From a virus: 64,000 bases of DNA. Below are positions 19,203-33,425 of this stretch, piece by piece. The notes beneath the pieces are model-generated. The model saw only the letters and a program-made list of their open reading frames with translations. It was not told where the DNA came from and searched no databases. The stretch is from positions 32,001 to 96,000 of the IMG/VR virus record IMGVR_UViG_3300043811_000021. One strand, written 5' to 3'. The position numbers and the translations under genes are program-made. Each line of letters begins with the position of its first letter. Position 1 is the first letter of the stretch.

Positions 19203-19207
19203 GAAAC

Positions 19208-19278
19208 TGGCAGGGGATAGGAGAATCGAACTCCTCACGGCGAGTTTTGGAGACTCGCCTAATCCCAGATCATCCCCT
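19208..19278 (-). tRNA. tRNA-Trp(CCA), short D arm; first gene of operon A
   Basis: AGGGGAT/ATCCCCT-G-CCA; CGAGT-CTCCAAA-ACTCG. Confidence 0.9.
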
Positions 19279-19290
19279 GTATATCCTGCG

Positions 19291-19305
19291 AATTTTCAAT
19301 GATCA
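19291..19305 (-). promoter_or_regulatory. boxA-like antitermination element
   Basis: TGATCATTGAAAATT immediately after terminator A; resembles rRNA-operon boxA. Confidence 0.45.
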
Positions 19306-19333
19306 AAAAGAAGCCCTTCCACTGAGGAAGGGC
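19305..19333 (-). terminator. attenuator terminator A
   Basis: GCCCTTCC-TCAGT-GGAAGGGC followed by TTCTTTTT, between leader ORF A and tRNA-Trp. Confidence 0.9.
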
Positions 19334-19359
19334 CGGTGCTACAACACTTGCACAGACCC

Positions 19360-19431
19360 CTAAGACACGATCCCCCATCCCATCCGCTTGATGGTTATGG
19401 TTCTGACGTGTTTGCTAGTGGTCTGCATCAT
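19360..19431 (-). CDS. leader peptide A, MMQTTSKHVRTITIKRMGWGIVS
   Basis: AAAGGA ribosome-binding site; TATAAT at 19467-19472; codons match operon A anticodons. Confidence 0.85.
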   Translation of the reverse strand: MMQTTSKHVRTITIKRMGWGIVS

Positions 19432-19526
19432 TTTTCCTTTGTCGAGGGGTTTCCCGCTCTAGCCCTATTATATCCCAGGCTGGGGTTTAGCTCTGCATAA
19501 TCCATCTACAGAGTACCGCAAGTCGA

Positions 19527-19856
19527 TTAGGAATGCAAGCCCAAAAATCGATAAGTCAACAATAAAGTTGTCAGATGGATCGCCTGATCGAACCCAATCA
19601 GCACAAAGAACCAGTGACGCTTCTCTTTCTTCCACAAATACGAAGTCCCCCTAGAGGTAATGTAATCGGTCGCGAAATGGAAGACAAACGTAATTATAGC
19701 GAACTTCCAGCCGAAAGCCAAGAATGGAAGAGAGTAAACAGAGACGTGAATTCCAAGCCATGTGTTTCTCGTTGACTTATTGAGAGCCATATTATCAGTT
19801 TGCAGAACAAAATCTGAGATGAAGTGAATCCAGATCAACGCTAAGATGTAGAGCAT
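19527..19856 (-). CDS. DUF3307-like membrane protein
   Basis: [14 protein letters not shown]...Y, HFATDY, GFDQAIH. Confidence 0.8.
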
Positions 19857-20603
19857 GATTTCTCCTAGTGGTCACGAAATATACTGCAATCAGAATAATC
19901 CGTCCCCTCTATCTTGCCTTTCTCAAATTGATTTCTTCCGTACTTTCTACAAAAGTGAGCCAGCTCTATCCACTCTTTATCTTCAAGTGAAGTAGAAGGA
20001 AGAGAGATTTTGATATTTTTTAATAATTCCTTAAATTTTTCGTCTTCTTTTTCGAGAAGTTCTCTTTTATGCTGGCCAATCTGGTCGTACATGGTAACAT
20101 TTCCAATCCAATTCTGTGCCTCCTCTGCACTGAATCCAAAAGATTCAACACAAGTTCTTTCTGCCTCTCTTTTCCATTCGTACATAATAATCCTCAATCG
20201 TTTATCGTCTTCCGTTTTTCCAGTCTTTTAACCAATGAATCAACAACAGACTCTAGGCTGTGTCGATCTCCAAAGTGACCTACTCCATCTACTACATCAG
20301 AACATATCTCTATTACCTCTTGTAGTCGCAGGCTTTCCAAATCTTTTCCTAATCGATCCCCTTTCATTATTATCTCTAGTCTTTCAAGAACGGAAGTTAA
20401 AACTTCCTGTCCTTTTATTACGGCTGTTAGAAAGTCATCTGCGAACACCATGTTCTCAATAAGAATAGTTCCATCGGAAAACCATTCTGCATTGTTCTTA
20501 ATCTTTATTCTGTAGCATCTCATCGTTGTCTCCTATGCATATTATAGCAAAAAAATAGGGGAGAACAATATTCCGCTCTCCCCGCTCACAAAATGGTTAA
20601 AGG

Positions 20604-20906
20604 TTAAACCGCCAGTGCTTCCAAAGCAGCCAGTTCCTTTTCCAGTTCGCTCTTCTTCTGGGCAGGAGTCTTGAGAGAGTCAATCCGTGCTGTCAGTTCA
20701 CGCTTACGTGCAGCGATCTTGTCAGAGTTACGAGATGTGATCTCCCGGCGAATTGCTTTCAGTTGCGAATCAATGAACTCAGGCTCTTCGATCTGTAATG
20801 CCTCGTATTCGGCACGGAGAGACTTTCCGAAGGCCAGTCCAGCAACCAACTCGTCAATGTCAGTTACGCGGTCAGTGTTGAATGTCTTGAATGTTTGAAG
20901 ATTCAT
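20604..20906 (-). CDS. small coiled-coil protein coupled to the TROVE/vWA gene
   Basis: ATGA overlap with 20903..22411. Confidence 0.65.
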   Translation of the reverse strand: MNLQTFKTFNTDRVTDIDELVAGLAFGKSLRAEYEALQIEEPEFIDSQLKAIRREITSRNSDKIAARKRELTARIDSLKTPAQKKSELEKELAALEALAV

Positions 20907-22411
20907 GCTGTTACCAGTTTACCTTTCTGTGCCCCCTTGAGCACTGAGTTGAGAGTTAAAAGCGGAGTGGCCAGGATTTCATCCACAAGTCCGTAGGTTT
21001 TCGTTCTCATAGTCTGCGCCAAATTTGGGATTGAGTAGTAATCCGTTCCGCCCCTTATGTCAAATGTCTGCATTTCCAGTCCAGCACTCTGCATCTTCGT
21101 TGTGAGGCTGTTAGGCTCACCTTCAACGTGGTACAGATATACTGGAACGTCACGGTCAGCGAACGCCACATATTTCTTGTAAACGTCCGTAAAGTACGGT
21201 GCGCTATGTTCCGCGCCGTCAGAAACAATTGCAATTCCATCAACCGAAATCTTCTCCTGAAGCATCCTGTTCAAACCGCAGCCGATGGATGTTCCACCGT
21301 TGGCTGTGATGTGCCTTGTTGCCTTTTGGATTGAGTCCAGAGGCAATCCTGTTACATCAATAGTCATCGGGTTAGTGTCAAAGAATACAAGGTAGACCTT
21401 TCCTCTGCAAATCTTAGCCAACGTAGCAGCAACGTGACGGGATGCCTCAATGGAACGAGACATACTACCCGACTTGTCTGCCAAAACGAGCCAATCGCCT
21501 TCTGGTCCTCCCATTGCCGCAATCTGCTTATCTTGTAGTCCCTGCAACTTCTCTTTCAGAACAGAGTCAGTCACAGACTCAGCAGCTTTGGTCGTCTTCA
21601 GCGTATTCTTCTTAGACGTTGCAGCCTTTGCTAATGCCTGATCAAATGCCCCGCGAAGTGCAGGATTCGTCTTCAGTCCCAACTTCTCCAACATCTTCAC
21701 GTTGGTAGTCAACTCAGTCGCAGACATTGCTCCAATCAACGCCAGAACCAAATCAGGTTCCTTCGCCTTTGCTCCCAATGCTCCCATCGCGATAAGGAAA
21801 GGAATCCGGTAACGCATGATCGATCCTGCCGCTTCCGTAGGAGTCATGTTCTTGAGGTTTGCTACTACCTCAAATACCGATCCCTTGGGAAGTGGTAATT
21901 TATTACCCTTTTCATCCTTACCGAAAAGAACCGCACGAACACGGTCTGCCTTTGTCTCAGGGCGAACATGGCCAAGAGCATACAACTCCCTCAGCGTCTT
22001 CCTATGCTGAATTGCCAGATGATCCCAGCCCTTATCCTGCTCCTTCTCATGCAGGTAATCGCCAATCAACCGGCGCAAAGGAAGCATCTTACCTGCTGGA
22101 CGAATCTCACGCGCAAAATGGAAAGCGCGAAGCAACTCACGCGGTCCAAGCAATGCTAAATGAGCATACGCATTATCCAATAACTCCGAGTCATTCTCAT
22201 ATGCCAAGCCGATAACTGGAAGAGCAACCTTGCTGTCCCTTATCTGCCCATGAGTTCTATCCCAGGAAATCAAATGCGCAAAGAATTCGCCTTCCTGTTT
22301 TACTGCCTGTTGTCCGATAGGAACGTATTCCTTCAGCGCACCGTGAGGACTTTTTGAAAGTTCACTCACAATTCTTTGTTTTGTCAATCCCTGTTCTGCC
22401 ATAGTATTCAT
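20903..22411 (-). CDS. TROVE-like + vWA (Ro60/Rsr-related) RNA-binding protein
   Basis: 502 aa; helical N-terminal region (FFAHL..W......RD..VALP), MIDAS motif LADKSGSM, GGTSIG, IVSDG; size and layout match Ro60. The TROVE call is inferred. Confidence 0.65.
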   Translation of the reverse strand: MNTMAEQGLTKQRIVSELSKSPHGALKEYVPIGQQAVKQEGEFFAHLISWDRTHGQIRDSKVALPVIGLAYENDSELLDNAYAHLALLGPRELLRAFHFAREIRPAGKMLPLRRLIGDYLHEKEQDKGWDHLAIQHRKTLRELYALGHVRPETKADRVRAVLFGKDEKGNKLPLPKGSVFEVVANLKNMTPTEAAGSIMRYRIPFLIAMGALGAKAKEPDLVLALIGAMSATELTTNVKMLEKLGLKTNPALRGAFDQALAKAATSKKNTLKTTKAAESVTDSVLKEKLQGLQDKQIAAMGGPEGDWLVLADKSGSMSRSIEASRHVAATLAKICRGKVYLVFFDTNPMTIDVTGLPLDSIQKATRHITANGGTSIGCGLNRMLQEKISVDGIAIVSDGAEHSAPYFTDVYKKYVAFADRDVPVYLYHVEGEPNSLTTKMQSAGLEMQTFDIRGGTDYYSIPNLAQTMRTKTYGLVDEILATPLLTLNSVLKGAQKGKLVTA

Positions 22412-22426
22412 CCTCCCGGAGATGTG

Positions 22427-22978
22427 TTATGGAAGTTTACGTTTTGCAAGGTAGTCAACAAAGAAGTTATAATCTAACTTCCGCTCCTTACACCAGTCAT
22501 GCGGGTCCATCGAACCTTTCCTCTTATTGCAATTTTTACAGGCAGAAAGGAAATTTGATGTGTCATTCGCCCCACCCGTTTCAAGTGGCTGGAAGTGATC
22601 GATTGACAGTGGAGATACACCCATTTTCACGCCGCAGTACATGCATTTGCATCCGTCAGCGACCCATACTTTCTGCTGCACCGCTCCAGAAATTTCATAG
22701 CGTACCTTGCGATGAAACGCTTTCGCTGGCATCACTAAAATCTCAGGATTATCTGTACGAGCTAAAAAGTCCGTCCACTCTTCGAGAGAAAGACGTTCAG
22801 TAGAGCATTCGCTAATATCTGGGCAATCTGGCAGCATGAGGATAGCCATTGCACCTTCTCCCCCCACTACCAACCCCTCAATTTTAAGGATATTACCCAA
22901 GTCGCCATAAACCGCTGGACGGTGGCGAAGCTCAAGCATATAAAAACGATCTCCGCTAGCCATATTATCCTCTCCCAA
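22427..22978 (-). CDS. HNH endonuclease domain protein
   Basis: CMYCG...SIDHFQP...GG.....NFLSACKNCNKRKG. Confidence 0.85.
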   Translation of the reverse strand: MGEDNMASGDRFYMLELRHRPAVYGDLGNILKIEGLVVGGEGAMAILMLPDCPDISECSTERLSLEEWTDFLARTDNPEILVMPAKAFHRKVRYEISGAVQQKVWVADGCKCMYCGVKMGVSPLSIDHFQPLETGGANDTSNFLSACKNCNKRKGSMDPHDWCKERKLDYNFFVDYLAKRKLP

Positions 22979-22992
22979 GGCACAAAAAATAC

Positions 22993-23158
22993 TGGCTTCG
23001 TGTCGAGTGTGGTTTTGATGTTTTCAAGCAGCCTTGCGGCCCTCGAAACCCCCGCCTCATCATCCCTGCCTCTCGGCAGAATCCCTGACTCAGACGATCA
23101 GGCGGGGGGTTGCAGGTTGCCCTGCAAAACTATCATGTATCCACTCTCAGTGAAGCCA
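22993..23158 (-). ncRNA. Y-RNA-like ncRNA, copy 1
   Basis: TGGCTTC-ACT-GAGAGTGG-ATACATG...CCACACTC-GACAC-GAAGCCA with internal hairpins. Confidence 0.7.
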
Positions 23159-23178
23159 ATCTTGTACTACTTAACTTA

Positions 23179-23295
23179 TGGAGCCGGGTCCAAGAATTGA
23201 ACTTGGATTGTCGATTTATGGAATCGATGCATGTATCCAGAGTTAGTAAGGTTGCCCTTGTGTCAACTTTGGCATTACCGTTTTGCTAACCCGGC
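23179..23295 (-). tRNA. tRNA-like gene (anticodon CAU) carrying a 43-nt motif insertion
   Basis: Removing 23229..23271 (bounded by an ATGC direct repeat) leaves a 74-nt cloverleaf: GCCGGGT/ACCCGGC-T-CCA, TCGAT-TCCATAA-ATCGA. Confidence 0.75.
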
Positions 23296-23308
23296 TCAAC
23301 TTGTACGG

Positions 23309-23773
23309 TCAACTATTCCTACCGCGAATCTTACGGCAATCAATACAGTAGTCCCTTAATCCGGTTTCCTTATTGCCGTCCTTGTGAAATCTTCCTTTTG
23401 GTATCCAATCCTGATGACGACTACACCAAGCCATTCCGTCAGGAGCTATTCCTATAGTTCGTATGGAATTGTACGTTGCCTTACCTAAATGACCGGCGGC
23501 AATGTTGCATCTTTTATGGGAAAATGCTATGTTCTCCAAATCCCAAAAGAGGTCGGCGCTTATTCCTTCCCAAGGTTTCTTGTGTTCTATAGAACACTCA
23601 GAAGATTTTTCAATCTTCTTCTTACAGCGATAACAAGTATCTGCTCCGCATCTTTTTACAAGATCAAACAAGATAAGTCTATAAAGTCTGCCATTCGCAG
23701 TACCAAAAGGCATATTTAGCGTCTCATCTTTTTTCCATGTAGAACTCTTCTTTTTTATTTCCATCATCTCCAT
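23309..23773 (-). CDS. HNH-type homing endonuclease
   Basis: CYRC...SIEHKKPW...LENIAFSHKRCN; C-terminal zinc module. The track's 5' extension overlaps ncRNA, so the start was moved. Confidence 0.75.
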   Translation of the reverse strand: MEMMEIKKKSSTWKKDETLNMPFGTANGRLYRLILFDLVKRCGADTCYRCKKKIEKSSECSIEHKKPWEGISADLFWDLENIAFSHKRCNIAAGHLGKATYNSIRTIGIAPDGMAWCSRHQDWIPKGRFHKDGNKETGLRDYCIDCRKIRGRNS

Positions 23774-23819
23774 ATAATACATGGAGGGAATAAATTTCAA
23801 CCCAATGCTGCTCTTTATC

Positions 23820-23862
23820 CATGTACCCAGGCAAAGTAACGTTTCCGTTGTGTCTTGTCCGG
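23820..23862 (-). ncRNA. Y-RNA-like motif, circularly permuted copy
   Basis: CCGGACAA-GACAC-AACG-GAAA-CGTT-ACT-TTGCCTGG-GTACATG. Confidence 0.65.
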
Positions 23863-23890
23863 TTCCGTTTTTTGCCCCCCACAACTTATT

Positions 23891-24014
23891 TGGTTAGTGT
23901 CTGTCAGCGAGTGTTGCTGGTTGAAAAAGTAGGGATCGAACCTACGACCTATTCATTTGAAGTGAATTGCTCTACCAGTGAGCTATTTTTCCGTGTACGC
24001 TGCCATGTTAACCA
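23891..24014 (-). ncRNA. Y-RNA-like ncRNA enclosing a complete tRNA fold
   Basis: TGGTTA-ACA-TGGCAGCG-TACACG...CGCTGACA-GACAC-TAACCA. Confidence 0.7.
23918..23992 (-). tRNA. tRNA-like domain with anticodon UCA (opal-reading)
   Basis: Canonical D arm GCTC/GAGC; ATTCA-CTTCAAA-TGAAT; T arm GTAGG-TTCGATC-CCTAC; ACCA end; G1-A72 mismatch; no Sec-type long arm. Confidence 0.75.
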
Positions 24015-24022
24015 AATCTTAA

Positions 24023-24084
24023 AGGGTTGGTATCGGACTGCGCTGTTCATGTTTACAAAGCATGTAAGCAGTCCCGTCAACCCT
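24023..24084 (-). ncRNA. Y-RNA-like ncRNA, minimal copy
   Basis: AGGGTTG-ACG-GGACTGC-TTACATG...GCAGTCC-GATAC-CAACCCT. Confidence 0.7.
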
Positions 24085-24091
24085 ATCTTAA

Positions 24092-24207
24092 TCCGCTTGT
24101 GTCTTTTGGCTAACCCTTGCGGGCACAAGGCCGTTTTCGAGGCGGCTTCTTTTTCTCCAAATGAAAATGCTGGACTACCAGCACATGTACGCCAAAACGT
24201 AAGCGGA
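24092..24207 (-). ncRNA. Y-RNA-like ncRNA copy
   Basis: TCCGCTT-ACG-TTTTGGC-GTACATG...GCCAAAA-GACAC-AAGCGGA. Confidence 0.7.
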
Positions 24208-24245
24208 ATCTTTCATCCCTAACATCAGGAAAACTCAAACTCAGT

Positions 24246-24362
24246 GATTAGGTAGCCTCACATCAGGTCGCTCACTTCCAGAATCCGGCACAGTTACAAA
24301 CGGGACGACACCCTCACCTAGCTACCATCTTTCCATGCCCTCATTGGTAAAGCTACCTAATC
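24246..24362 (-). ncRNA. unassigned structured RNA
   Basis: 11-bp closing stem GATTAGGTAGC/GCTACCTAATC; inner TACCA/TGGTA. Confidence 0.45.
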
Positions 24363-24455
24363 TCTGCATCAACAAAACCAACTCTACTACAATGTCCTGC
24401 GCATTGCAAGCACTTTCTAAAACTATTTTCTACTATTTTTATGCTTGCTAAATTA

Positions 24456-24534
24456 TGGTGGGGCTGGCAGGACTTGAACCTGCTGCCTCCGGTTTCGTAG
24501 ACCGGCGCTCTGAATCCAGATGAGCTACAACCCC
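24456..24534 (-). tRNA. tRNA-Arg(ACG)
   Basis: CCGGT-CTACGAA-ACCGG; CCA. Confidence 0.95.
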
Positions 24535-24546
24535 ACTTACAAAAAA

Positions 24547-24621
24547 TGGTCGGGGAGGGGAATCCTGACATCCCAACCTTTCCGCCCCAAACGGAAAGCT
24601 CTTCCTTTGAGCTACTCCCCG
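24547..24621 (-). tRNA. tRNA-Pro(UGG)
   Basis: CGGGGAG/CTCCCCG-A-CCA; TTCCG-TTTGGGG-CGGAA; atypical T arm. Confidence 0.88.
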
Positions 24622-25156
24622 ATAAACTTGGTTACTTCTCGTCCAATAAAACATAGTACTGATCAGGACCATGCTCTGCTGCTGAATTCAGAACATCCAC
24701 CAATTCATCCGCAGTAATGGCATAGTATTTTCTATTTCCATTCACCGGAAAAAACGGGAATAGCGCAGCCATTCGTCTTTCTGATTCAAGATACAGCTTT
24801 TCTGTTTGTACGAAAACCTGTGACATATTACCTCCGATAACACTCACAAATCTCTAACAACAAACTTCCACGGATCGCTCATTACCCAGCCAACAGCTTT
24901 TCCGTTCTCTAACTCATACCAACGATCAACTGGAGATTCAGGTCCAGGCCACGGCTTAGGCCAAGTAGGTCCATCCTCGCCAAAATTAGTATGCGTCCTT
25001 AGCACAGGAATTTTAAGTAAAGAATCTACTTCGTCATTCCTGCCCATTCCATTTTCCGTGTACCCGCATGGCAGAGCGTCAGATAAACTATCAGACCCAT
25101 CATATCCAAAAATCTTTATGAGTAGTTCTTCTTCCTCTGTCATTGCTTCTCCGATA

Positions 25157-25234
25157 TGGTGGACTCGGCCAGATTTGAACTGGCAACACGATGATTTTCA
25201 GTCACCTGCTCTACGCGATTGGAGCTACGAGTCC
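25157..25234 (-). tRNA. tRNA-Phe(GAA)
   Basis: GGTGA-CTGAAAA-TCATC; CCA. Confidence 0.93.
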
Positions 25235-25861
25235 GATTAACGATCTCCAGTCGTTTCTTTCTTTAGATGTCTTCCGACGATGACAATTTGCACATCGCAC
25301 AACACATTTTTCAATCTCTTCCAAAATCCTTTTCATCGAGCATGTTGAGCGTAGGAGCTTAGATATATTGCACTTTTTAACCCCTTTAATATGGTCAAAA
25401 TCCAAGACCATAATGTCCGATTCTCCGCAATCCACACAATGATGTTCCGCCAGATAAGAAACGATGAAAGCCCTTTGTTCCTGTCGTTTAATATCCCTGT
25501 TACGATAAAGGCGCTTCCGTTCTCTTTCCGAGTTATCCCTATAGTGCTGTGCCTTATAAGAACTTTCGCAAATCATGCACCATGCTTGTAGCCCATCTCT
25601 CCGTGCAGCATTTTCTCTAAAATCGCAGCGTGTTTTAACCGTGGTGCATTTGCTGCAATATTTCTCCTTTTCAGGATCGAACTTTGGAAGAAGACTTCTA
25701 CCGTCTTCCGCGATGCACTTCTTGGAGCAAAACCTACGTTTAGCATATTGAGTTTTCCAAAACTCTTTGCCACACCAAGCACATGAATAAGCAAATAGAC
25801 GCCTATTCTTGCCATGAAAAAATTCGATCCTACAATCAACCATGCAATAAGTGTAATACAA
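25211..25861 (-). CDS. HNH homing endonuclease whose 3' end runs into tRNA-Phe
   Basis: CVDCGESD...LDFDH....K...I....EIEKCVVRCANCHRRKT; upstream CxxC modules. Confidence 0.85.
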   Translation of the reverse strand: MYYTYCMVDCRIEFFHGKNRRLFAYSCAWCGKEFWKTQYAKRRFCSKKCIAEDGRSLLPKFDPEKEKYCSKCTTVKTRCDFRENAARRDGLQAWCMICESSYKAQHYRDNSERERKRLYRNRDIKRQEQRAFIVSYLAEHHCVDCGESDIMVLDFDHIKGVKKCNISKLLRSTCSMKRILEEIEKCVVRCANCHRRKTSKERNDWRSLIGLVAPIA

Positions 25862-25884
25862 ATGACTGAAAACATCAAAACTTT

Positions 25885-25960
25885 TGGTGGACCGGGAGGG
25901 GCTTGAGTCCTCGCGCAGACGCTTGCAGGGCGTCCCATCTCCATCTGAAAGTACCGGCCC
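25885..25960 (-). tRNA. tRNA-Ala(UGC)
   Basis: G3-U70 pair; GACGC-CCTGCAA-GCGTC (C33); CCA. Confidence 0.88.
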
Positions 25961-26005
25961 ATTTATTCAACTTCAAACTGTGCCGGGGAATTTCACCCCG
26001 GCGAT

Positions 26006-26093
26006 TGGGGAGATCGGCGGAACTCGAATCCGCGTTGAGGAATTACCCTCCCGGAGCCACAATCCGGTGCCTATCCATCTCGGCCACGACCTC
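26006..26093 (-). tRNA. tRNA-His(GUG) with long variable arm
   Basis: CCGGA-TTGTGGC-TCCGG; C73; extra arm GAGG-GTAATT-CCTC; position -1 is T rather than G. Confidence 0.85.
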
Positions 26094-26096
26094 ACT

Positions 26097-26170
26097 TGGA
26101 GCACTCAGTAGGAATCAAACCCACGTTTTGGCCATACAAAGGGCACGTTCTGTCACTGAACTATGAGTGC
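26097..26170 (-). tRNA. tRNA-Thr(UGU)
   Basis: GCACTCA/TGAGTGC-T-CCA; loop TTTGTAT. Confidence 0.82.
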
Positions 26171-26174
26171 AAAC

Positions 26175-26720
26175 TTACACAAACTGCAAACTCTTCTCAC
26201 CTTCGGAATCAGAGTACAAATACTTACTCCACGCTTCGACTTCCAATCCCATCGAACGAAGGATAATCCTTCCTGTGTGAACCGTGGCTGGGAGAGGCTT
26301 GCGAAGTAGTTTCATTCCAGCCTCTTCCGGCGTACGATCTGCCTTGCGGTGGTTATCTTTGCGGCAGCAAGTTACAAGGTTACTCCAGTCGTTCTTTCCT
26401 CCACGCGACTTAGGAATTACGTGGTCAAGTGTCAAAGAATCACCCTTGAATTCCTCTCCACAATAGCAGCACTTATGCCCATCGCGCAAGTAAATATTTT
26501 TCCTACTCACAACCTGCATCCGAACGGGAATATGTCTATACGTTCTCAACTTGATTACCGATGGTAAAGTTATGCCAGGATAAACTTCAATATCCGTTGG
26601 CATCTCTACCATAGCAGCACCCTTACAAAGTAACGTCAAAGCTCTACGGGCAGCAACTATTCTGATCGGCTCATACGATGCGTTTAATACCAACACCGGC
26701 TTTTTCATCAGGTTGCTCAT
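26175..26720 (-). CDS. HNH endonuclease of the type common in tRNA arrays
   Basis: VLVLNASYEP...LPSVIKL...RDGHKCCYCG...TLDHVIPKSRGG...W.NLVTCC. Confidence 0.92.
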   Translation of the reverse strand: MSNLMKKPVLVLNASYEPIRIVAARRALTLLCKGAAMVEMPTDIEVYPGITLPSVIKLRTYRHIPVRMQVVSRKNIYLRDGHKCCYCGEEFKGDSLTLDHVIPKSRGGKNDWSNLVTCCRKDNHRKADRTPEEAGMKLLRKPLPATVHTGRIILRSMGLEVEAWSKYLYSDSEGEKSLQFV

Positions 26721-26764
26721 ATTCCCTCAATCAATCTCCGCTAGTCTCTCTGAATAATCTTCTG

Positions 26765-26840
26765 TGGAGCCGGTGGAGGCAATCGAAGCCCCGACCTCAT
26801 CTGTACGAAAGATGCGCTCTTCCACCTGAGCTACACCGGC
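26765..26840 (-). tRNA. tRNA-Thr(CGU)
   Basis: CATCT-TTCGTAC-AGATG; CCA. Confidence 0.92.
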
Positions 26841-26935
26841 TTGTCTACGTCTTGCCACTACTATACTATGCACTTTCGTGAAGTCGTGGCTCACTAACAT
26901 CATTCTGTGGGTCATCGGCTTTCCTTTCTTTCAAT

Positions 26936-27010
26936 TGGAGCGGAGTACGGGGTATGATCCCGTGCGCAAAGTGTGGCACACTTCGATGCTTCCAATTACA
27001 TCAACTCCGC
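26936..27010 (-). tRNA. tRNA-Gly(GCC)
   Basis: GCGGAGT/ACTCCGC-T-CCA; loop GTGCCAC; T-loop ATCATAC. Confidence 0.88.
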
Positions 27011-27018
27011 AAATCTTT

Positions 27019-27093
27019 TGGTTCCAGCGCGAGGTTACGATCCCCGATCCTCGCCTTCAAAGGGCGGTATCCTACCAGTTAGATGACGCTGGA
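27019..27093 (-). tRNA. tRNA-Gln(UUG)
   Basis: U1-A72; CGCC-CTTTGAA-GGCG; T-loop ATCGTAA. Confidence 0.88.
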
Positions 27094-27102
27094 TCAAAAC
27101 CT

Positions 27103-27177
27103 TGGTTGCCCATCGAGGCGACGATCCCCGAACTACTGGTCCAGAGCCAGCCGTGATACCAATTTCACCAATGGGCA
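27103..27177 (-). tRNA. tRNA-Gln(CUG)
   Basis: U1-A72; GCTGG-CTCTGGA-CCAGT; T-loop ATCGTCG. Confidence 0.88.
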
Positions 27178-27190
27178 ACAACTAAACAGT

Positions 27191-27284
27191 GAGGGCGCGA
27201 CTCTTTCGCTCCGAACGTCTTACTCAAACCCCAAAGGGGTCACTGCGTTACTCGACAGGACTTACTAGACGGCCTGTGTCCCTC
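27191..27284 (-). ncRNA. unassigned ~95-nt structured RNA between tRNA-Asn and tRNA-Gln
   Basis: GAGGG/CCCTC closing stem; ACAGG/CCTGT; ACCC/GGGT hairpin; possible CGTCT/AGACG pseudoknot. Confidence 0.45.
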
Positions 27285-27293
27285 TCCAAACTT

Positions 27294-27384
27294 TGGCTCA
27301 CGGAGCAGGACTCGAACCTGCGATGGGAGATGAACTCCTCTGTATTAACAGTACAGCGCCTGCTACCAACTCGGCTATCCGTGA
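27294..27384 (-). tRNA. tRNA-Asn(GUU) with long variable arm; first gene of operon B
   Basis: U1-A72, G73; CTGTA-CTGTTAA-TACAG; extra arm GGAG-TTCAT-CTCC. Confidence 0.9.
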
Positions 27385-27401
27385 ACATCCCTAAACAGTT
27401 C

Positions 27402-27429
27402 GAGACCCAAACCTTTCGATCTGGGCCTC
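27402..27429 (-). terminator. attenuator hairpin B (weak U tract)
   Basis: GAGGCCCAGATC-GAAA-GGTTTGGGTCTC followed by GAACTGTTT. Confidence 0.6.
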
Positions 27430-27476
27430 TGCGTTTTACCATTTTTAGTTAGGTAAAAATCTCTCTGAGACCCCGA

Positions 27477-27542
27477 TTATGACCCCCCACCCTGCGGCGT
27501 TTGTGTCGCGGTTGGATTGGCGTTATGGAATCGTGTCTGCAT
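27477..27542 (-). CDS. leader peptide B, MQTRFHNANPTATQTPQGGGS (leaderless)
   Basis: ATG 6 nt after the -10 box; codons match operon B anticodons. Confidence 0.85.
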   Translation of the reverse strand: MQTRFHNANPTATQTPQGGGS

Positions 27543-27548
27543 GAATTC

Positions 27549-27577
27549 AATGTACCTCAGTCCTAAAAACTTGTCAA
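27549..27577 (-). promoter_or_regulatory. promoter of tRNA operon B
   Basis: TTGACA-17 nt-TACATT. Confidence 0.85.
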
Positions 27578-28025
27578 GAACTTTTTTAAGGTAATCCCGC
27601 CAACTGCGTTTCTTGCCTCTGGGCCGGTGGCCAGTTGTCTATTTTTCGCATTAGAGTCCGTATCGCTGCTTCCCGCTTCACGTCCACAATTCCTCTCCCC
27701 TGATCTTTCAGAGAATCAATCAATAAAGAAACCAGCTTTGCCTTTGCCTCAGCTAACGGATACTCTCGTTTAGAAACGTGAATCACTACTTCATGCTTTT
27801 GTGTGTCCTGCGCGAAACAGGTAATCGAGAAAAGAAGAATTGCGATAAGGAATGGTTTCATGCGTCATCATGGCATAGTTCATATAAAGACAATATAAGA
27901 AAAGAGAAGGGACATGCTCTTCAGCTTGCCCCTTCGAGCCTCAGCCTACGCAGCTGAGGGAATACGATTTTGGTTAAATCAATTGTAACGCAGTTCCGCA
28001 ATCTGTGCAGAATTTATTTGCAGCC

Positions 28026-28481
28026 TTATTCACTTTTCCGCAAGTCACACACTCCGGTTTCCTGTCCACCGTTCCCGCCGCCCAGCTTGCTCCAATTGCA
28101 ATCCTTGAGGGCTAGGCGAATACGATGCAGCATGAACCATGCCGTCTTCTGTGTGACCTCAATCGCCCGCATGATCTCGTAGGAACTAACGCCGTTCTTG
28201 CAATTCACTACCAGCCAAACGGCGGTCAGCCATTTATCGAGCGGCACAGGAGAATCCTCGAACACACTCTGAGTCTTCACACTGAATTGCTTGTGGCACT
28301 CTTTCGCCATGCACTTCCATATCCGGCGAGAGGACAGATAGGAAACTCTCTTGCTCTCACAGTGCGGGCAGGTGACACCGTTAGGCCAGCGCATCGACGC
28401 AACGAAATCGACACACACGTTCGGGTCTTGGAAATACCGCGTTGCGGCAAGTAAGCTCTTGGGTAGTCTTTCTTTACTCAT
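28026..28481 (-). pseudogene. IS1595-family transposase, truncated before the DDE domain
   Basis: RWPNGVTCPHC...WKC...C.KQFSVKT.SVFEDS.VPLDKWL...KNGVSSYE...VTQKTAWFMLHRIR; ends before the expected ExDET motif. Confidence 0.88.
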
Positions 28482-29350
28482 TCTTCACCTCACAGAATCA
28501 AAGAAAACGTTGCGGCTGTCTCCGTAGAGGTGTATTATTTCTACAGAGAGAAGCCCTTATGACTCCCCGCGCAACCATGCGCAGGGAGCCTGAAAGGCCA
28601 TAGACTCCGGTGTTAGAGCACCATTGCCTGTGGGTACTACCGTGTGAAAGTACATTTTGCTTCTCCTCGGTCCTTAAATTAGCTTGCTAGGCTGTGGACC
28701 GAATCCGTTGTACCGAAGCCCCGGCCTTAAGCTGGGGTTTCGTTTTTATCCTCCCTTTTATTGGCAATGTAGCGATGCGGATCACGGCCCCGGCCTTGGT
28801 GCGTCCGCGTGATCCGTCCAGCCTGCATGAGAGCGATGAGCGACCACCCTACTGCGTTCATAGCGGCATCAGGTTTTTCTGGGAGACGAACCAGTGCACC
28901 GAGTTGAATTGCCGAAAGGACACTCCGCGAGGTCCACTCGGTTTCCGGCGAAGAATTCACCAATTGCAGAACGACAGACTCCATTTCACTCAGTTCGCCC
29001 CGGACAGTTTTTGCTTGGACAGTGACTAGATTTCCATCTTTGCCAACAAAGACAAAATCGTATCCGGGATAACGCTGCTTGAGGCGTGTCAGATCATCGC
29101 TATCCCTGCGGATTTCCCGCTCAGCGGCTTCGATTGGATTTATGGGAGCTGCGTTCATTCCTTAATCGTAAACATGGATTCATGGAATGTCAAGCCTTAC
29201 GGTGGAAAGTTTTCATGGAAATCATGGATTATCCTGCGCTTTCCTACGCAACGGCATAGTCCTAAATCACGCCGCTACGAGGGTTGTATCCGCTCGGCTG
29301 TAAACCGAAGTCAACAGATTTTATTTGTATGGTGCGTCAACGATATTTAT
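28026..29350. mobile_element. IS1595-like remnant with passenger ORF 28727..29158
   Basis: Truncated transposase, higher GC, and abrupt truncation of the neighbouring HNH gene near 29347; boundaries approximate. Confidence 0.55.
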
Positions 29351-30009
29351 GCCGATTTAACCTCTTTCAGATGAGCAACCTCTATGTATCGCGAATATCT
29401 ACATACCGCACAGAATTTCGGTCGTCCGCTTTTATCATATATCGTTTCAGCATCTCTACGAATAGATGAACGCGCTGACTGCCAATTAGACCGCCTCGCG
29501 AATAGTTCATCCTTCGTTAATTGTCCGATACTGATTGGTCGCTTCACTCTCTCTGCGCACGATGGGCAGTATTTATGAGATTTATAATCTTCCGTCCTGT
29601 AAAATACGTCCCCACATATTTTGCAGTGGCATCCAGTTCTTAGTTTTTTGCCGACAAATACAGAAGAGCACTTTCGGTCACAGAAGTTTCTTTTATTTAT
29701 CTGAGAGATTTTCTCCCTCGGCTTGAGAATTAGAATCCTTCCACACTCCTTGCATATTTTTGGGTTAGAGTAATAGAGATCAATTGCTTCTTGTCTAGCT
29801 AAAATATTTCCATTTGGTATGTAGTTTGGGTGCTCTTTTTTATATCTCTCTTTATCTCTTTCAGTCAGATATTCCCTGTGATCTTCTCGATACTTCTTCT
29901 GGTATGCGCGGCGGCATTCCATGCATCTTTCTGTCGATATTGGGATTTCATGAAGGCGCTTTTGGCAAAACTTCGTTAATCCTGAAAACATTTCTTGACC
30001 ATGCTTCAT
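29347..30009 (-). pseudogene. HNH homing endonuclease truncated inside the nuclease motif
   Basis: Several CxxC modules; ends CAVCRY...EVAHLKEVKSA* without the N/CxxH half of the motif. Confidence 0.7.
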
Positions 30010-30145
30010 ATTCTCTCCTCAGATTGGCGTGGCAGTAGCCTACGCTGATTAAATTCAGTGTTTTCATACCTATTCCTCTTTTTTTTGGTTTTCCTGCTGC
30101 TTAACGTGTTGCAGGAGCCACGGAATAATTTAGTGTAGCACGGAA

Positions 30146-30490
30146 CTACGGAAACCGAGCAATACCAGGAACTTGATCGAATCCAGTCACTCCTTCTCGC
30201 TTCAAAAGCCTCCAACCTCCATCACCTATCCGCATCACTTCTCCACTGTCTATTTCCTCAATCGGATTCGTAACCTTTCTCCAATTCTCGCAAGTGCATT
30301 TGAATTGCATTGAAACAGGAAGAGGACATGGCTCTCCTAGATGCGATTCTTCATTATCACCACAACATCTACGCATATTACATGGAGGGATACATCCACC
30401 AACTAAAACAGCGCCCTGTTTGACAAGACGCTGCGCTTCGGCTCCAGAACGGGCCATTCCAGTTTCCGTTAGTGCCTTAGATAATTTCAT
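30146..30490 (-). CDS. stand-alone S4 RNA-binding domain protein (TyrRS C-terminal-like) with Cys-rich insert
   Basis: L.KALTETGMARSGAEAQRLVKQGAVLVGG...KVTNP......GEVMRIG. Confidence 0.8.
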   Translation of the reverse strand: MKLSKALTETGMARSGAEAQRLVKQGAVLVGGCIPPCNMRRCCGDNEESHLGEPCPLPVSMQFKCTCENWRKVTNPIEEIDSGEVMRIGDGGWRLLKREGVTGFDQVPGIARFP

Positions 30491-30507
30491 TTCCTCTCCC
30501 TAAAGTA

Positions 30508-30594
30508 TGGTGCAGGCGGTGTGAATCGAACACACTATGCCCCGGAGGACGCTTGATTTACAGTCAAGGAGGCTACCATTAGCCCAACGCCTGC
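30508..30594 (-). tRNA. tRNA-Tyr(GUA)
   Basis: CTTGA-CTGTAAA-TCAAG; long arm; CCA. Confidence 0.93.
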
Positions 30595-30600
30595 ACATCA

Positions 30601-30687
30601 TGGAGGAGAGGACGCGAGTCGAACGCGCAGTACCTTTCAGTACGTCTGATTTCAAATCAGGTCGGCTTGCCCATGCCGAACCTCTCC
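30601..30687 (-). tRNA. tRNA-Ser(UGA)
   Basis: CTGA-TTTGAAA-TCAG; long arm; CCA. Confidence 0.92.
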
Positions 30688-30692
30688 AAATT

Positions 30693-30780
30693 TGGCGGTA
30701 GCAGGATGAGTTGAACATCCAATAGCTTTCACTATGTCTCGCTTCGAACGAGGTGGGCTTGCCACATGCCCAATGCTACC
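30693..30780 (-). tRNA. tRNA-Ser(CGA)
   Basis: CTCG-TTCGAAG-CGAG; long arm; G73-CCA. Confidence 0.92.
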
Positions 30781-30784
30781 AAAA

Positions 30785-30870
30785 TGGCGGAAAGTTAGGT
30801 ACTCGAAACCTACACCTCGCGGTGCTCACCGATTTCCAATCGGGTCCCATCCCTGACGGGTTAACTTTCC
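30785..30870 (-). tRNA. tRNA-Ser(GGA)
   Basis: CCGA-TTGGAAA-TCGG; long arm; G73-CCA. Confidence 0.92.
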
Positions 30871-30874
30871 AAAC

Positions 30875-30960
30875 TGGCGGAGCGTACTGAAGTCGAATCA
30901 GTTCAGGCTTTCACCTGTACGGTTTAGCAAACCGCTGCATTTCCGTCCTGCCCACGCTCC
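30875..30960 (-). tRNA. tRNA-Ser(GCU)
   Basis: GCGGT-TTGCTAA-ACCGT; long arm; G73-CCA. Confidence 0.93.
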
Positions 30961-30961
30961 G

Positions 30962-31039
30962 TGGTCCTCGCACCCGGACTCGAACCGGGAATATGACACG
31001 CTTTTTGAGAGCGCCGCTCTTCCATTTCGCCATGCGAGG
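30962..31039 (-). tRNA. tRNA-Leu(CAA), reduced variable arm
   Basis: GCGCT-CTCAAAA-AGCGT; A73-CCA. Confidence 0.88.
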
Positions 31040-31052
31040 TACTTCTAAACTA

Positions 31053-31135
31053 TGGTGCCCGCAGAGGGACTCGAACCCCCACCCCGAAAGACCTGTTCCT
31101 AAGACAGGCGCGGCTGCCAATTACGCCATGCGGGC
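31053..31135 (-). tRNA. tRNA-Leu(UAG)
   Basis: CCTGT-CTTAGGA-ACAGG; CCA. Confidence 0.95.
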
Positions 31136-31147
31136 ACATCTTAAACT

Positions 31148-31222
31148 TGGAGTACCGGGAGAGAGTCGAACTCTCCAAAACTTGCTTTGCAGGCAAGACC
31201 TTAGCCGATTAGGTTCCGGTAC
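31148..31222 (-). tRNA. tRNA-Cys(GCA)
   Basis: CTTGC-CTGCAAA-GCAAG; U73-CCA. Confidence 0.9.
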
Positions 31223-31223
31223 A

Positions 31224-31306
31224 TGGTGCGGGATAAGGGACTCGAACCCTTACGATTTCTCCACGGATTTTAAGTCCGTTATGGCTCCCAGTTTCATCAA
31301 TCCCGC
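31224..31306 (-). tRNA. tRNA-Leu(UAA); first gene of operon C
   Basis: ACGGA-CTTAAAA-TCCGT; CCA. Confidence 0.95.
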
Positions 31307-31337
31307 AAAACTAAAAAGCCCCCATTTCTGGAGGCTT
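31307..31337 (-). terminator. attenuator terminator C
   Basis: AAGCCTCCA-GAAA-TGGGGGCTT followed by TTTAGTTTT, directly before tRNA-Leu. Confidence 0.88.
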
Positions 31338-31362
31338 CTGGTAAAAATCCTGAACTTGGACT

Positions 31363-31434
31363 CTATCCCATAGCCTCTCTCGCACTCAGACTGAGTGAAT
31401 ACGATGATAAAGATAGGGAGCACAAGTTGTTCAT
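31363..31434 (-). CDS. leader peptide C, MNNLCSLSLSSYSLSLSAREAMG
   Basis: Codons 4-17 are only Leu/Ser/Cys/Tyr, matching operon C; ATG 6 nt after the -10 box (GAGGA could also act as a ribosome-binding site). Confidence 0.88.
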   Translation of the reverse strand: MNNLCSLSLSSYSLSLSAREAMG

Positions 31435-31440
31435 GTATTG

Positions 31441-31469
31441 ATCCTCTCATAGATTCAGGATGTTGTCAA
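31441..31469 (-). promoter_or_regulatory. promoter of tRNA operon C
   Basis: TTGACA-17 nt-GAGGAT with a TG extension. Confidence 0.65.
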
Positions 31470-33425
31470 GACTTCTTTTTTGTTATTTTCGTTATCCGCA
31501 CATTCTTTAGTTTTGAACGGACAATTCTCGCCAGACGTGCGATCTCCTTGAGTTTTTCTCCCTTCCATATTTCTTCGTCCGCCAAAAGAACTCTTCCGTG
31601 CTTATCTGTAGATAATTTTAATATCGCAGATGTGATGTCAGGTATTGAGTCTTTCTTTGTGTACTTCTTCTTCAGGATTATCGCCATATATCTCCTCAAT
31701 CCGGGTACTTAACTTTGTCTGGATTTTCCTTTTGCCAGTCCGAAAATTGCGCAGCAAAATGAGCCACTTCATCTGCCTGTTCATCTAAACTCGATGCAAG
31801 ATTTATGGCCTCTTCCTCAGTCAGGTTCTTGTCGCGTTCTACCCATTCTGACAATTGCTGCAATAGAACAGCGTATTGTCTCACAGCCTGTACTGAAAGG
31901 CGATCCTGAGCGCGAATGAAAAAGTACGGCTCCCCTTTATGTAGCCTTAGTAGTGGGTTTTCGTTTGCATATTTACCTGTCTTTGGCATTTACTCTCCTG
32001 CTTTCTGCGATAAATTTATCGAGTTTTTCAGATTCTGGCTTGAGAAACTCTTCTTCAATACGATTCGCTTCTCGTTTGAAAGCATCTGCCAATTCGGTTT
32101 TGTTTCCAATCCAGTATTGGGCAGATTTTTGCTTAATAATATGCACAACGCCTCGGTAGGTCTCTACCTTCGCTGCTACAGATGTCCACTCCATTTGGTA
32201 GTCAAAATAATCTTGAGTAATATCCTCATTGTCAACTTTTTCCATTCCTTGCCTCCATCATTTGATCTGCTATTCTATATGCCCTTTGCGCTATCTTTTC
32301 ATATTCGTCTTTCGTCATAGGCTCCCCTAATTTGATAGAAAGGTTGACTTGACCACTTATAATAGAACCCAGAGCAGCCATAGCGAACTCATCCCGCAGT
32401 CTCTTCTTTACCTCTTCTGTCATAGAAAAAATCTGCTGAGGTGAATCCGAAAAATCGGGAGGATTGATGTTAGTTCCCTCAAATACTAACGGCGGGTTGG
32501 AGTACATCTTCAGGTATTCATTTGCTTCAGCCAATTGAGCGGCTATCTCGGTCAGCATGGAGCATTGCAAAGACAGCATCCCCATCTCTTGCGATCCAAT
32601 TGATTCAGTATCATGAGCATCATTCTGGCACAGCTCATTTGCTTTGCGAATATCATCTGGTTTCATATCTAATCCCACCACCCTCTCCAGTGTTTGCGCA
32701 TGATAGTAAACAACAACTCCTCATCCTGTTTCGCCAGTTTTCCTGCTTCCGTGCCAGAATACTTATAGCGCGGGAACCCTTTGTCAGTGTTTTTGAAATA
32801 TTCGTTCTTAATCAACCTTCTCAGAAGGTGAGAGCATACCCTCATCCTACGCGCACTCTTTTCGCTCCCGATATGATGACCGTACTTCTCGAATCCTTCC
32901 GCCATTCGAGAAATTTTATATTCCATGATCTCCGCGAGAAATGACCAATCAAAATCCGCATCTCTCCAGATCACGGGTGCCCATCGGATCATATTCCTCG
33001 GTACGTACCAAAACAAATCCTCAACGATGGACTTGACATTCCTAAAGAACGTCTTAGGCATCCATCTATACGGAACACTGTAGAATTTACTCATTATTAT
33101 CCACCAAATACCACACCCTATTCATCCGAGCATGGTTCGTTACCCTTGCTGACTTTTTCCAATCCCCAAAGAATACGAATTCTTTGCCTCTGAACAAACT
33201 ACCCGCTGCGTTTCCTAACAATTCAGGATTAAGATTTCTCTTCTCCATCTCAGCAAACACATCGTCTGCCGTTACGCTTCCCTTTCGTTCGGCTATCTCA
33301 ATTGCTATTTTCCTAGCGTCCGCAATCATTTTCCTGCGACAGAAAGCATCCTCTGCCTGAGACATTCCTGATTCCTTCAGGCGCTCACCTTCTGGTAAAT
33401 CGAATCTAAGTTCGCACTGTGTCAT

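Follow-up and report, generated by a model that had tools for sequence, protein, structure and literature searches.

A candidate ribosome-mediated transcription attenuator ahead of a tRNA operon in a soil phage

Organization of the locus

The virus record IMGVR_UViG_3300043811_000021 (134,145 base pairs, bp; rated complete; labelled a soil phage) carries every one of its transfer RNA (tRNA) genes in three clusters, A, B, and C, that lie on the minus strand, at 17.6-31.3 kilobases (kb), within the 64,000-nucleotide (nt) portion of the record analyzed here (the window; record positions 32,001 to 96,000). This report concerns an element of about 190 nt, leader B, that lies between a predicted promoter and the tRNA genes of cluster B (operon B), and that has the anatomy of a putative ribosome-mediated transcription attenuator: that is, a short open reading frame (ORF) whose translation would govern whether RNA polymerase proceeds into the tRNA genes. 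Coordinates are those of the window, and features of the window are on the minus strand unless marked otherwise.

Operon B (24456-27384), as established from ARAGORN calls at default and relaxed settings, Rfam matches, and reading of coordinates, begins at 27384 with tRNA-Asn(GTT) and continues with a 117-nt spacer element, Gln(CTG), Gln(TTG), Gly(GCC), Thr(CGT), an HNH gene, Thr(TGT), His(GTG), an Ala-like element, a second HNH gene, Phe(GAA), Pro(TGG), and Arg(ACG). ARAGORN at default settings calls Asn, both Gln, both Thr, His, Phe, and Arg; Gly(GCC) is called at relaxed settings only, and Pro(TGG) is found by Rfam only (24550-24621; 40 bits), its anticodon being taken from the coordinates. 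A tRNA-Ala(UGC) is called in operon B by neither ARAGORN nor Rfam; in its place, at about 25893-25969, is a tRNA-like stretch with UGC in the anticodon loop and aberrant D and T arms, and relatives of the phage have a normal tRNA-Ala(TGC) at this position.

The sequence of leader B reads exactly as an earlier, preliminary description of the window had stated. A -35 hexamer, TTGACA (27572-27577; read from the sequence and found by promoter scan), is followed after 17 nt by a -10 hexamer, TACATT (27549-27554), and after a further 6 nt (GAATTC) by the ATG (27542) of an ORF of 21 codons (MQTRFHNANPTATQTPQGGGS; 27477-27542) that ends in TAA (27479-27477). No Shine-Dalgarno sequence is present upstream of the ORF, which presumably sits on a leaderless messenger RNA (mRNA). 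Region 2 (GGGGTCTC; 27467-27474), the 5' strand of the predicted antiterminator, begins 3 nt past the stop codon, after TC. Folding places next a spacer hairpin (TTTTACC ... GGTAAAA; 27434-27458) and then a terminator-like hairpin of 12 bp (GAGGCCCAGATC-GAAA-GGTTTGGGTCTC; 27402-27429; free energy -18.7 kcal/mol), the arms of which are region 3 (27418-27429) and region 4 (27402-27413). The promoter, which scores 10/12 in a consensus scan, is the only one for the cluster and lies upstream of the leader, and the gap from hairpin to tRNA-Asn is 17 nt; because of these two facts, expression of the tRNAs must pass through the leader.

Clusters A and C are likewise preceded by leaders. Leader ORF A (MMQTTSKHVRTITIKRMGWGIVS; stop codon TAG; 19360-19431) lies ahead of tRNAs for Trp, Met, Ile, Lys, Arg, Val, Thr(GGT), and Gly(TCC), and is followed by a terminator that has a T tract and is flagged by a terminator scan (19312-19334). 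Leader ORF C (MNNLCSLSLSSYSLSLSAREAMG; stop codon TAG; 31363-31434) lies ahead of three Leu, one Cys, four Ser, and one Tyr tRNA, and is followed by a terminator that has a T tract and is flagged by the same scan (31314-31339).

Codon content of the leaders

The preliminary description held that the codons of leader B mirror the tRNAs of operon B, an alanine tRNA among them. We scored this match with tool-called tRNAs only, standard wobble rules, and a binomial test against a background of 0.27 obtained from the genome's long ORFs. The results indicate that 14 of the 20 sense codons of leader B are read by tRNAs of operon B (P = 9e-5), as compared with 3/20 by tRNAs of cluster A and 1/20 by tRNAs of cluster C. 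The claimed mirroring is borne out for tRNAs that the tools find; it falls short for Ala(UGC), for which no tool makes a call. With leader A, 14/22 codons are read by the tRNAs of its own operon (P = 3e-5), and with leader C, 13/22 (P = 2e-5); the off-diagonal cells, in which a leader is scored against the tRNAs of another cluster, are all non-significant.

A screen for short ORFs that precede at least three tRNAs, with a binomial test against the decoding set of the cluster at P < 1e-3, was applied to the whole 134-kb genome and tested 15 ORFs; the matches were the three leaders only (5 counting nested starts). With relaxed tRNA calls and a 4-kb span, the screen found all three; with default calls and a 5.5-kb span, it found leader C alone. 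Applied likewise to 80 unrelated viral tRNA loci, it produced 0 matches among 482 ORFs.

Relatives of the phage were gathered through a TROVE-like gene that lies between clusters B and A, yielding 11 viral and 37 metagenome loci with syntenic tRNA clusters (numbered L003 and so on); L004, L028, and L037 have a relative of the gene without tRNA clusters nearby. The leader set comprises 32 instances in 20 viral and metagenome loci, namely 18 A leaders, 9 B leaders, and 5 C leaders, with L015 and L017 sharing one A ORF; L020, which has a terminator upstream of tRNA-Trp and no recognizable A leader, is excluded. Among GenBank phages, blastn finds only a 71-nt match in tRNA-Asn, and no close cultured phage; tblastn with the TROVE-like protein finds one uncultured 595-kb phage, at 30% identity.

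The diagonal pattern of the window recurs in L003, L005, L006, and L009. When the match is scored on core tRNA sets pooled over the relatives, leader B of the window reaches 15/20. In the 32 pooled leaders, the A leaders have 286/415 codons read by cluster A, 53 by B, and 27 by C, the B leaders have 152/209 read by cluster B, 27 by A, and 12 by C, and the C leaders have 66/117 read by cluster C, 16 by A, and 19 by B, counts that are descriptive, as the leaders are kin, pooled P values overstate independence, and the independent units number approximately three, the leader classes. In the pooled set the match is specific to reading frame: for frame 0 vs. frames +1 and +2 it is 0.69 vs. 0.25 and 0.18 in A leaders, 0.56 vs. 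0.23 and 0.13 in C leaders, and 0.73 vs. 0.49 and 0.34 in B leaders.

The isoacceptors for Arg, Thr, and Gly are divided between clusters A and B, and the leaders track the isoacceptors of their own cluster in their choice among synonymous codons, which are AGA/AGG/CGG, ACC/ACT, and GGA/GGG in A leaders and CGA/CGC/CGT, ACA/ACG, and GGT/GGC in B leaders. The ratio of A-read to B-read codons is 145:21 in A leaders and 21:56 in B leaders (Fisher 2e-20, for sequences that are related); in the window alone it is 8:0 for leader A vs. 3:5 for leader B (P = 0.026). We conclude that, as judged from codon choice, the match between leader and operon is at the level of the anticodon, beyond the level of the amino acid.

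Each tRNA species is represented about once per leader, with CGG present exactly once in 14 of 14 A leaders and two Pro codons present in 9 of 9 B leaders. The match is not uniform along the ORF: at the final three sense codons, a match is present in 3/32, 11/32, and 16/32 leaders, as compared with 23-29 of 32 at codons 6-19 before the stop. Such a drop is a prediction of attenuation, because a ribosome stalled near the stop would still cover the downstream strand.

Alternative RNA structures

Folding of nascent-RNA prefixes bears out the proposal of the preliminary description that GGGUCUC, just after the stop codon, pairs with GAGGCCC, the start of the 5' arm of the terminator-like hairpin. 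At each of the stall positions folded, with the ribosomal A site at codons 5-17, the 5' arm (GAGGCCC...) pairs with the strand at +0/+4 to +10 past the stop; with the ribosome footprint on the stop codon, pairing of the 5' arm with the stop-proximal strand is lost. The duplex between regions 2 and 3 in the window is 7 bp (-12.4 kcal/mol). In close copies it is 7 bp (L003), 7 bp (L005), 8 bp (L009), 6 bp (L016), and 5 bp (L031), so that it is kept in 6 of 6 close copies and is full in four. In relatives, two positions of the terminator stem have changed in a compensatory manner (A-T/G-C/C-G and G.T/G-C/A-T), and, because the two U residues of GGGUCUC can pair with A or with G, this variation in the stem is accommodated in the antiterminator. 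The arms of the spacer hairpin also change together (TACTCGC/GCGAGTA in L003, GCGC/GCGC in L005, and TTTTCC/GGAAAA in L009). In the divergent relatives L006, L012, and L039, a stop-proximal partner for the 5' arm is retained, together with canonical T tracts.

Compared with shuffled sequences, the antiterminator duplex reaches a shuffle fraction of 0.05 in 17 of the 32 leaders, a figure that is a rough guide, as the automated finder erred on four B leaders: in the shuffle run it took the wrong hairpin in L006, L009, L016, and L031. In other runs it took the wrong hairpin in the B leaders of L006 and L009 (one run) and in the A leaders of L006, L019, L022, L025, and L027 (another run).

A pairing between the beginning and the end of the leader (regions 1 and 2), which would serve as the classical anti-antiterminator, is evident in the A leaders. 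Their first codons (GCAGAC) pair with the post-stop strand (GTCTGC), and in 13 of 18 the pairing is better than at least 94% of shuffles (shuffle fraction ≤0.06), as it is in 3 of 5 C leaders. This bears on two sequences that leaders A and B of the window have in common, ATGCAGAC and GGGGTCT. Their sharing, noted in the preliminary description, is confirmed; the common ancestry to which it was ascribed is a poorer explanation than a role as the strands of region 1:2 pairing, at least in A leaders.

A motif, GATTTTTACC, occurs a little ahead of the terminator in leader B (27452-27461), where it lies in the spacer hairpin, and in leader C (31341-31350), and is found also in L003, L016, L017, and L031. 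One could speculate that this motif, or the spacer hairpin, is a pause element that synchronizes polymerase and ribosome.

Conservation of the leaders

The architecture of leader B recurs upstream of tRNA-Asn in 8 further distinct relatives. All 9 B leaders have a TTGACA-type -35 element, a TAnnnT -10 element, a start codon 5-16 nt further on, 21-27 codons, and then a hairpin; GGG[T/C]CTC is kept in 6 of the 9. An extra ORF is inserted between the hairpin and tRNA-Asn in L016/L017, L031, and L039, the insert in L039 being an endonuclease-type gene. Canonical T tracts follow the B hairpin in L006, L012, and L039, and are absent in the closest relatives, L003, L005, L016, and L031. The weak U tract of leader B (tail GAACTGTTTA), to which the preliminary description drew attention, is real and is limited to this one sub-group.

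The order of residues in the encoded peptide is scrambled across relatives (MKFNRANSTRTFTPAQPQGN..., MFLHTQTRFTTPAANTQPRQG..., MRLFTHTATQFPTQPAGN...). At positions where the majority codon is read by the operon, the alternative codons are read by the operon too, in 21 of 24 cases for B leaders (8.5 expected) and in 25 of 36 for A leaders (10.1 expected); of the alternative codons that change the amino acid, 20/22 in B leaders and 20/31 in A leaders remain in the operon-read set. We conclude from these substitutions that the conserved property is codon readability and not the peptide.

Relatives have a fourth cluster, D (Met, Asp, Glu; 2699-4596 in L003, 444-2145 in L006, and 1231-1556 in L007), that is missing from the window and that has a promoter directly ahead of the first tRNA, with no leader. 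Codons for Asp and Glu are nearly absent from the leaders of the window. In L011, the tRNAs for these two amino acids are inside cluster A, and the A leader of L011 alone has Asp codons in its sensor part (2, vs. 0 in 13 other complete clusters), together with one extra Glu codon. The transfer of Asp and Glu tRNAs into cluster A, with matching codons, is a single event and is only suggestive.

Start signals

In leader A of the window, about 85 nt are inserted between the promoter (GCTTGCA...TACTCT) and the ATG (19432-19530), and AAGGA precedes the ATG. Five distinct A leaders, the window's included, have this insertion, and in all five AAGGA lies 4-7 nt before the ATG. The promoter-abutting leaders (B leaders, C leaders, and A leaders without the insertion; starts within 5-16 nt of the -10 element), by contrast, show the geometry of a leaderless mRNA: that is, a start 5-7 nt past the -10 element and no Shine-Dalgarno sequence. 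Three long ORFs of the phage (143, 91, and 116 amino acids; at 29158, 35784 (minus strand), and 35881 (plus strand)) also start 6-7 nt past a TTGACA-17/18-TAnnnT promoter, and leaderless mRNAs would seem to be common in this phage and its host. The switch of start signals, leaderless in one set of leaders and AAGGA in the other, would be the best of the indirect evidence that the leader ORFs are translated.

Proposed mechanism and alternatives

The anatomy of leader B, its codon-anticodon match, the conservation of that match, and the alternative pairings are all observed in silico. They suggest that leader B is probably a ribosome-mediated (leader-peptide), trp-like transcription attenuator that stands before a phage tRNA operon and senses the supply of the tRNAs that the operon encodes. 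Leader B has a promoter-proximal ORF with a start predicted to be usable, codons cognate to the downstream tRNAs, and an antiterminator that shares a strand with the terminator-like hairpin. Every computational test that was run agrees with the core of the preliminary description, namely a putative near-leaderless, codon-mirroring ORF coupled to a competing antiterminator.

According to this proposal, in which we infer the transcription start, translation of the ORF, termination at the U-poor hairpin, and the response to tRNA supply, transcription would begin at the A of the ATG (27542) or at a neighboring position, and the start of the RNA would be translated as a leaderless mini-ORF. The ORF would serve as a "roll-call," with about one codon for each downstream tRNA species: CAG and CAA for Gln, ACA and ACG for Thr, CGA for Arg, TTC for Phe, CAT for His, AAC/AAT for Asn, CCA/CCG for Pro, and GGT for Gly. 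With tRNAs plentiful and charged, the ribosome would quickly reach the TAA and cover GGGGUCUC, there would be no pairing with GAGGCCC, the 12-bp hairpin would form, and transcription would stop, or be strongly reduced, 17 nt ahead of tRNA-Asn. With one or several tRNAs scarce, the ribosome would lag in the ORF, GGGGUCUC would be free as GAGGCCC emerges, the antiterminator would form, closed over the spacer hairpin, and RNA polymerase would enter the tRNA genes. The net effect would be negative feedback, operon by operon, with tRNAs made on demand; attenuators A and C would do likewise for the other two clusters, the three leaders dividing the codon table between them. Candidates for the natural trigger are amino-acid starvation, late-gene demand, and cleavage of host tRNAs by defense nucleases.

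Several results weigh against this proposal, in addition to the kinship of the pooled leaders noted above. Some concern the promoter and the start: the leader B promoter is one of 18 promoter-like sites, as compared with a mean of 18.8 in shuffles, so that the promoter scan by itself is no evidence, and the GTG start that L009 would use on a leaderless RNA would be poor in E. coli-like hosts. Others concern the codons. GCC, ACC, GCG, GGG (twice), and TCA, 6 of the 20 codons of leader B, are unread by tool-called tRNAs of the operon; the frame control for leader B of the window is weak (15/20 in frame vs. 10/19 and 9/19 in the other frames), and no stop interrupts frame +1 in any of the 9 B leaders; and, across relatives, comparison of the presence of single tRNAs with the presence of their codons showed little (except for Asp in L011), probably owing to missed tRNA calls. 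The remainder concern RNA structure. The antiterminator duplex of the window is better than only 93% of mononucleotide shuffles (z = -1.6; fraction 0.07). Region 1:2 pairing in leader B is not significant (-9.3 kcal/mol vs. -6.8 ± 2.5 in shuffles; z = -1.0), and, since the pairing is unconvincing in B, untranslated RNA would read through by default. The minimum-free-energy fold of the full-length leader always includes the terminator, so that antitermination must be kinetic. Finally, the tail GAACTGTTTA behind the hairpin is without a U tract and the terminator scan leaves the hairpin unflagged; because of this, and because the U tract is absent also in L003, L005, L016, and L031, intrinsic termination at the leader B hairpin is doubtful or leaky. 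The frame and shuffle controls of leader B itself are weak, and its credibility leans on the two sister attenuators and on the relatives.

In a first alternative, the sensor is the same and the output is different: Rho or another factor, pausing, or processing would act instead of intrinsic termination. In the version with Rho, a lingering ribosome would hide a loading site in the C-rich ORF, and, after its departure, Rho or a nuclease would act near the U-less hairpin. Such an output would suit the absence of a U tract in the window and four close relatives and the composition of the first 48 nt of the ORF, which is C-rich and G-poor (18 C, 8 G), and its logic, from stalling to read-through, fits all of the codon evidence equally well. 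However, the C-richness results from the codon set itself, canonical intrinsic terminators are present in attenuators A and C and in the B leaders of L006, L012, and L039, and the conserved competition between regions 2 and 3, which an intrinsic attenuator needs, is superfluous in the Rho version. We consider a factor-dependent output of this kind unlikely.

A second alternative dispenses with the ribosome altogether: leader B would be an RNA element, such as a processive antitermination RNA, a signal for processing or stability of the tRNA precursor, or a protein-binding site, and the ORF would be incidental. This would be in keeping with the fold of the leader B RNA, which is better than that of shuffles (z = -2.3), with the preservation of GATTTTTACC and GGGTCTC at the nucleotide level, and with a frame specificity that, for B alone, is weak. 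Left unexplained would be the operon-specific match at the anticodon level in three unrelated leader sequences, the replacement codons that the operon can read, the drop in match at the last three codons, the fixed distance from -10 element to start, and the appearance of AAGGA together with an inserted 5' untranslated region; and no Rfam family, T-box included, matches at E ≤ 1. An RNA element independent of ribosomes thus has little probability.

Still less probable, in our judgment, is that the ORF encodes a small functional or arrest peptide, with a terminator of its own, and that its composition accounts for the likeness to the tRNA set. None of the 9 B leaders has lost the ORF, and a loose motif, F-T-P-A ... 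Q-G-N, is seen repeatedly among them, but the residue order is scrambled, most substitutions alter the amino acid, and synonymous choice tracks isoacceptors, which the function of a peptide would not need; moreover, the operon has no other promoter and would be silenced by a terminator that acted constitutively 17 nt ahead of its first tRNA. Chance, that is, a short ORF and a hairpin that happen to precede a tRNA cluster, is scarcely credible: short ORFs are common and promoter-like sites are no commoner than in shuffles (18 vs. 18.8), but P is 9e-5 for leader B and 2-3e-5 for two further independent leaders, controls give 0/482 ORFs, and the element is kept in 8 further distinct relatives.

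A broader version of the attenuator proposal is tentative, and we would put it forward only as a possibility: that, in this lineage of large environmental phages, all of the tRNAs are made on demand, through three leaderless roll-call ORFs that gate the operons, gauging decoding capacity per codon family and switching on the limiting tRNA set, with anticodon-nuclease defense or late demand as the trigger. On this broader version, tRNA genes would for the first time be seen to regulate themselves by way of the translation of their own codons, and the phage would have a built-in sensor of tRNA-targeting immunity.

Relation to known systems

Leader-peptide attenuators control amino-acid operons (trpL, hisL, pheL, leuL, thrL, ilvL), and two of them, thrL and ilvL, sense more than one amino acid. 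The putative attenuator in leader B resembles these in having a short ORF behind a promoter, regulatory codons, an antiterminator and a terminator-like hairpin that share a strand, and, as proposed, a logic in which stalling leads to read-through. It differs from them in that the targets are tRNAs and not enzymes; in that each of 9-12 tRNA species is represented by about one codon, with the match at the anticodon level, in place of a run of one codon; in that the mRNA is presumably leaderless, the setting is viral, and three copies split the codon table; and in that copy B is without a U tract and without evident region 1:2 pairing. The Rfam families for Trp, His, Leu, Thr, and Phe leaders are unmatched, both at the gathering score and at E ≤ 1. 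PMC3082878 sets out the attenuation model for pheL, and PMC1183508 describes leader-peptide attenuation in general.

The T-box is likewise an attenuator that reads tRNA status by codon-anticodon pairing and chooses between terminator and antiterminator. A T-box, however, needs no ribosome, makes direct contact with a single uncharged tRNA, and is marked by stem I and a conserved T-box motif, whereas leader B has an ORF, in frame from its start codon to its stop codon, that contains many different codons; at 17000-32000, the Rfam T-box model is unmatched at E ≤ 1, and the matches there are tRNA-like or due to chance. In E. coli, the pheM leader controls pheST, which encodes phenylalanyl-tRNA synthetase. 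This system, a leader-peptide attenuator of a charging or decoding component that responds to charged tRNA, is the closest in logic; what it controls, however, is a synthetase gene, and only one amino acid is sensed. An attenuator-like leader at E. coli pheV and pheU, considered as a possible precedent, was rejected: in MG1655, both tRNAs have a promoter directly before them and no Phe-rich ORF. In Mycobacterium tuberculosis, small Cys-rich ORFs reportedly report on the cleavage of tRNA-Cys by VapC4 (Barth et al. 2021). There, as proposed here, depletion of a tRNA is sensed through ribosome stalling in a small upstream ORF, but the circuit is a cellular stress circuit, concerns one tRNA species, and has an output other than a tRNA gene.

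Arrays of tRNA genes in phages resemble the clusters described here in having a large tRNA set, with HNH homing endonucleases interspersed, as annotated in T5. The roles given for such arrays are compensation for codon usage and replacement of host tRNAs cut by anticodon nucleases (PMC10264068). The same article describes no regulatory leader, and contains the words 'promoter' and 'terminator' 0 times. The small ORFs of the tRNA region of phage T5, a further candidate precedent, were rejected, as they are not matched to the neighboring tRNAs (0/27 ORFs in our screen). No leader peptide or attenuator before tRNA genes was found in the literature searched, which was mostly abstracts and lay outside supplements and most subscription journals, where a precedent is possible. 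As far as can be told, therefore, the kind of mechanism is known, and what is new is the tRNA targets, the design with one codon per isoacceptor, the three leaders that share the code among them, the leaderless form, and the viral setting.

How phages regulate their tRNA genes, and why some phages have so many, are old questions. If the attenuator proposal is true, the phage gauges the supply of tRNAs directly and adjusts their synthesis by feedback, a logic that, in the literature searched, is described for no tRNA gene. Classical attenuation would be extended from "amino acid to biosynthetic enzyme" to "decoding capacity to tRNA," with a new design of sensor in which one codon per isoacceptor is used and many small delays are integrated, as opposed to a run of one codon. 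The leader would also have ties to the arms race over tRNA-cleaving defense. The element is compact, and the codon-match screen is applicable to all viral genomes.

Other features of the tRNA clusters

The TROVE-like gene (20903-22411) is conserved, with 61-83% identity in 48 loci. Its naming as a TROVE gene in the preliminary description is unconfirmed: Pfam gives only a sub-threshold match to VWA_CoxE, the match to phrog_850 ("RNA-binding protein") has E = 1e-7, and a PDB profile search gives 0 matches. The Y-like RNAs that were described beside it find no support in Rfam, in which Y RNA is unmatched at E ≤ 1 in 17000-32000. A weak tRNA-like call, Gln(TTG), recurs between operon B and the TROVE-like gene, at about 24192 in the window and at L003 8840, L005 4555, L026 285, L034 611, and L040 938; it may represent the tRNA-like module of a Y-like RNA.

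Three tRNA-like stretches, the stretch in operon B with UGC in the anticodon loop (about 25893-25969) and two with CCU (18696-18785) and GAU (17702-17788), have sensible acceptor and anticodon stems and aberrant D or T arms, and are called by neither ARAGORN nor Rfam. Given the normal tRNAs at these positions in relatives, they may be decaying or unusual tRNAs. Two of the called tRNAs, Asn (27294-27384; 91 nt) and His (26006-26093; 88 nt), are unusually long, with what appears to be an extended variable arm. The 117-nt element between tRNA-Asn and Gln(CTG) (27178-27293) is not a tRNA; it has complementary ends (GAGGG...CCCTC) and is without an Rfam match.

The clusters contain suppressor-type tRNAs, one with anticodon UUA in operon A (18866-18951) and one with anticodon UCA that ends operon B (23922-23992; called by ARAGORN at default settings). 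Relatives hold such tRNAs too (L006 2861 and 14039), with anticodon CUA among them. The TAA stop codon of leader B is readable by the UUA tRNA of operon A, so that ribosomes could run on through the hairpin; the link is inconsistent among relatives, since L017 has the UUA tRNA, yet the stop codon of its B leader is TAG.

Endonuclease genes, five HNH and one PD-(D/E)XK, are interspersed among the tRNAs at 26175-26720, 25211-25861, 23309-23884, 22427-22978, 16943-17584, and 17928-18362, as in phage T5.

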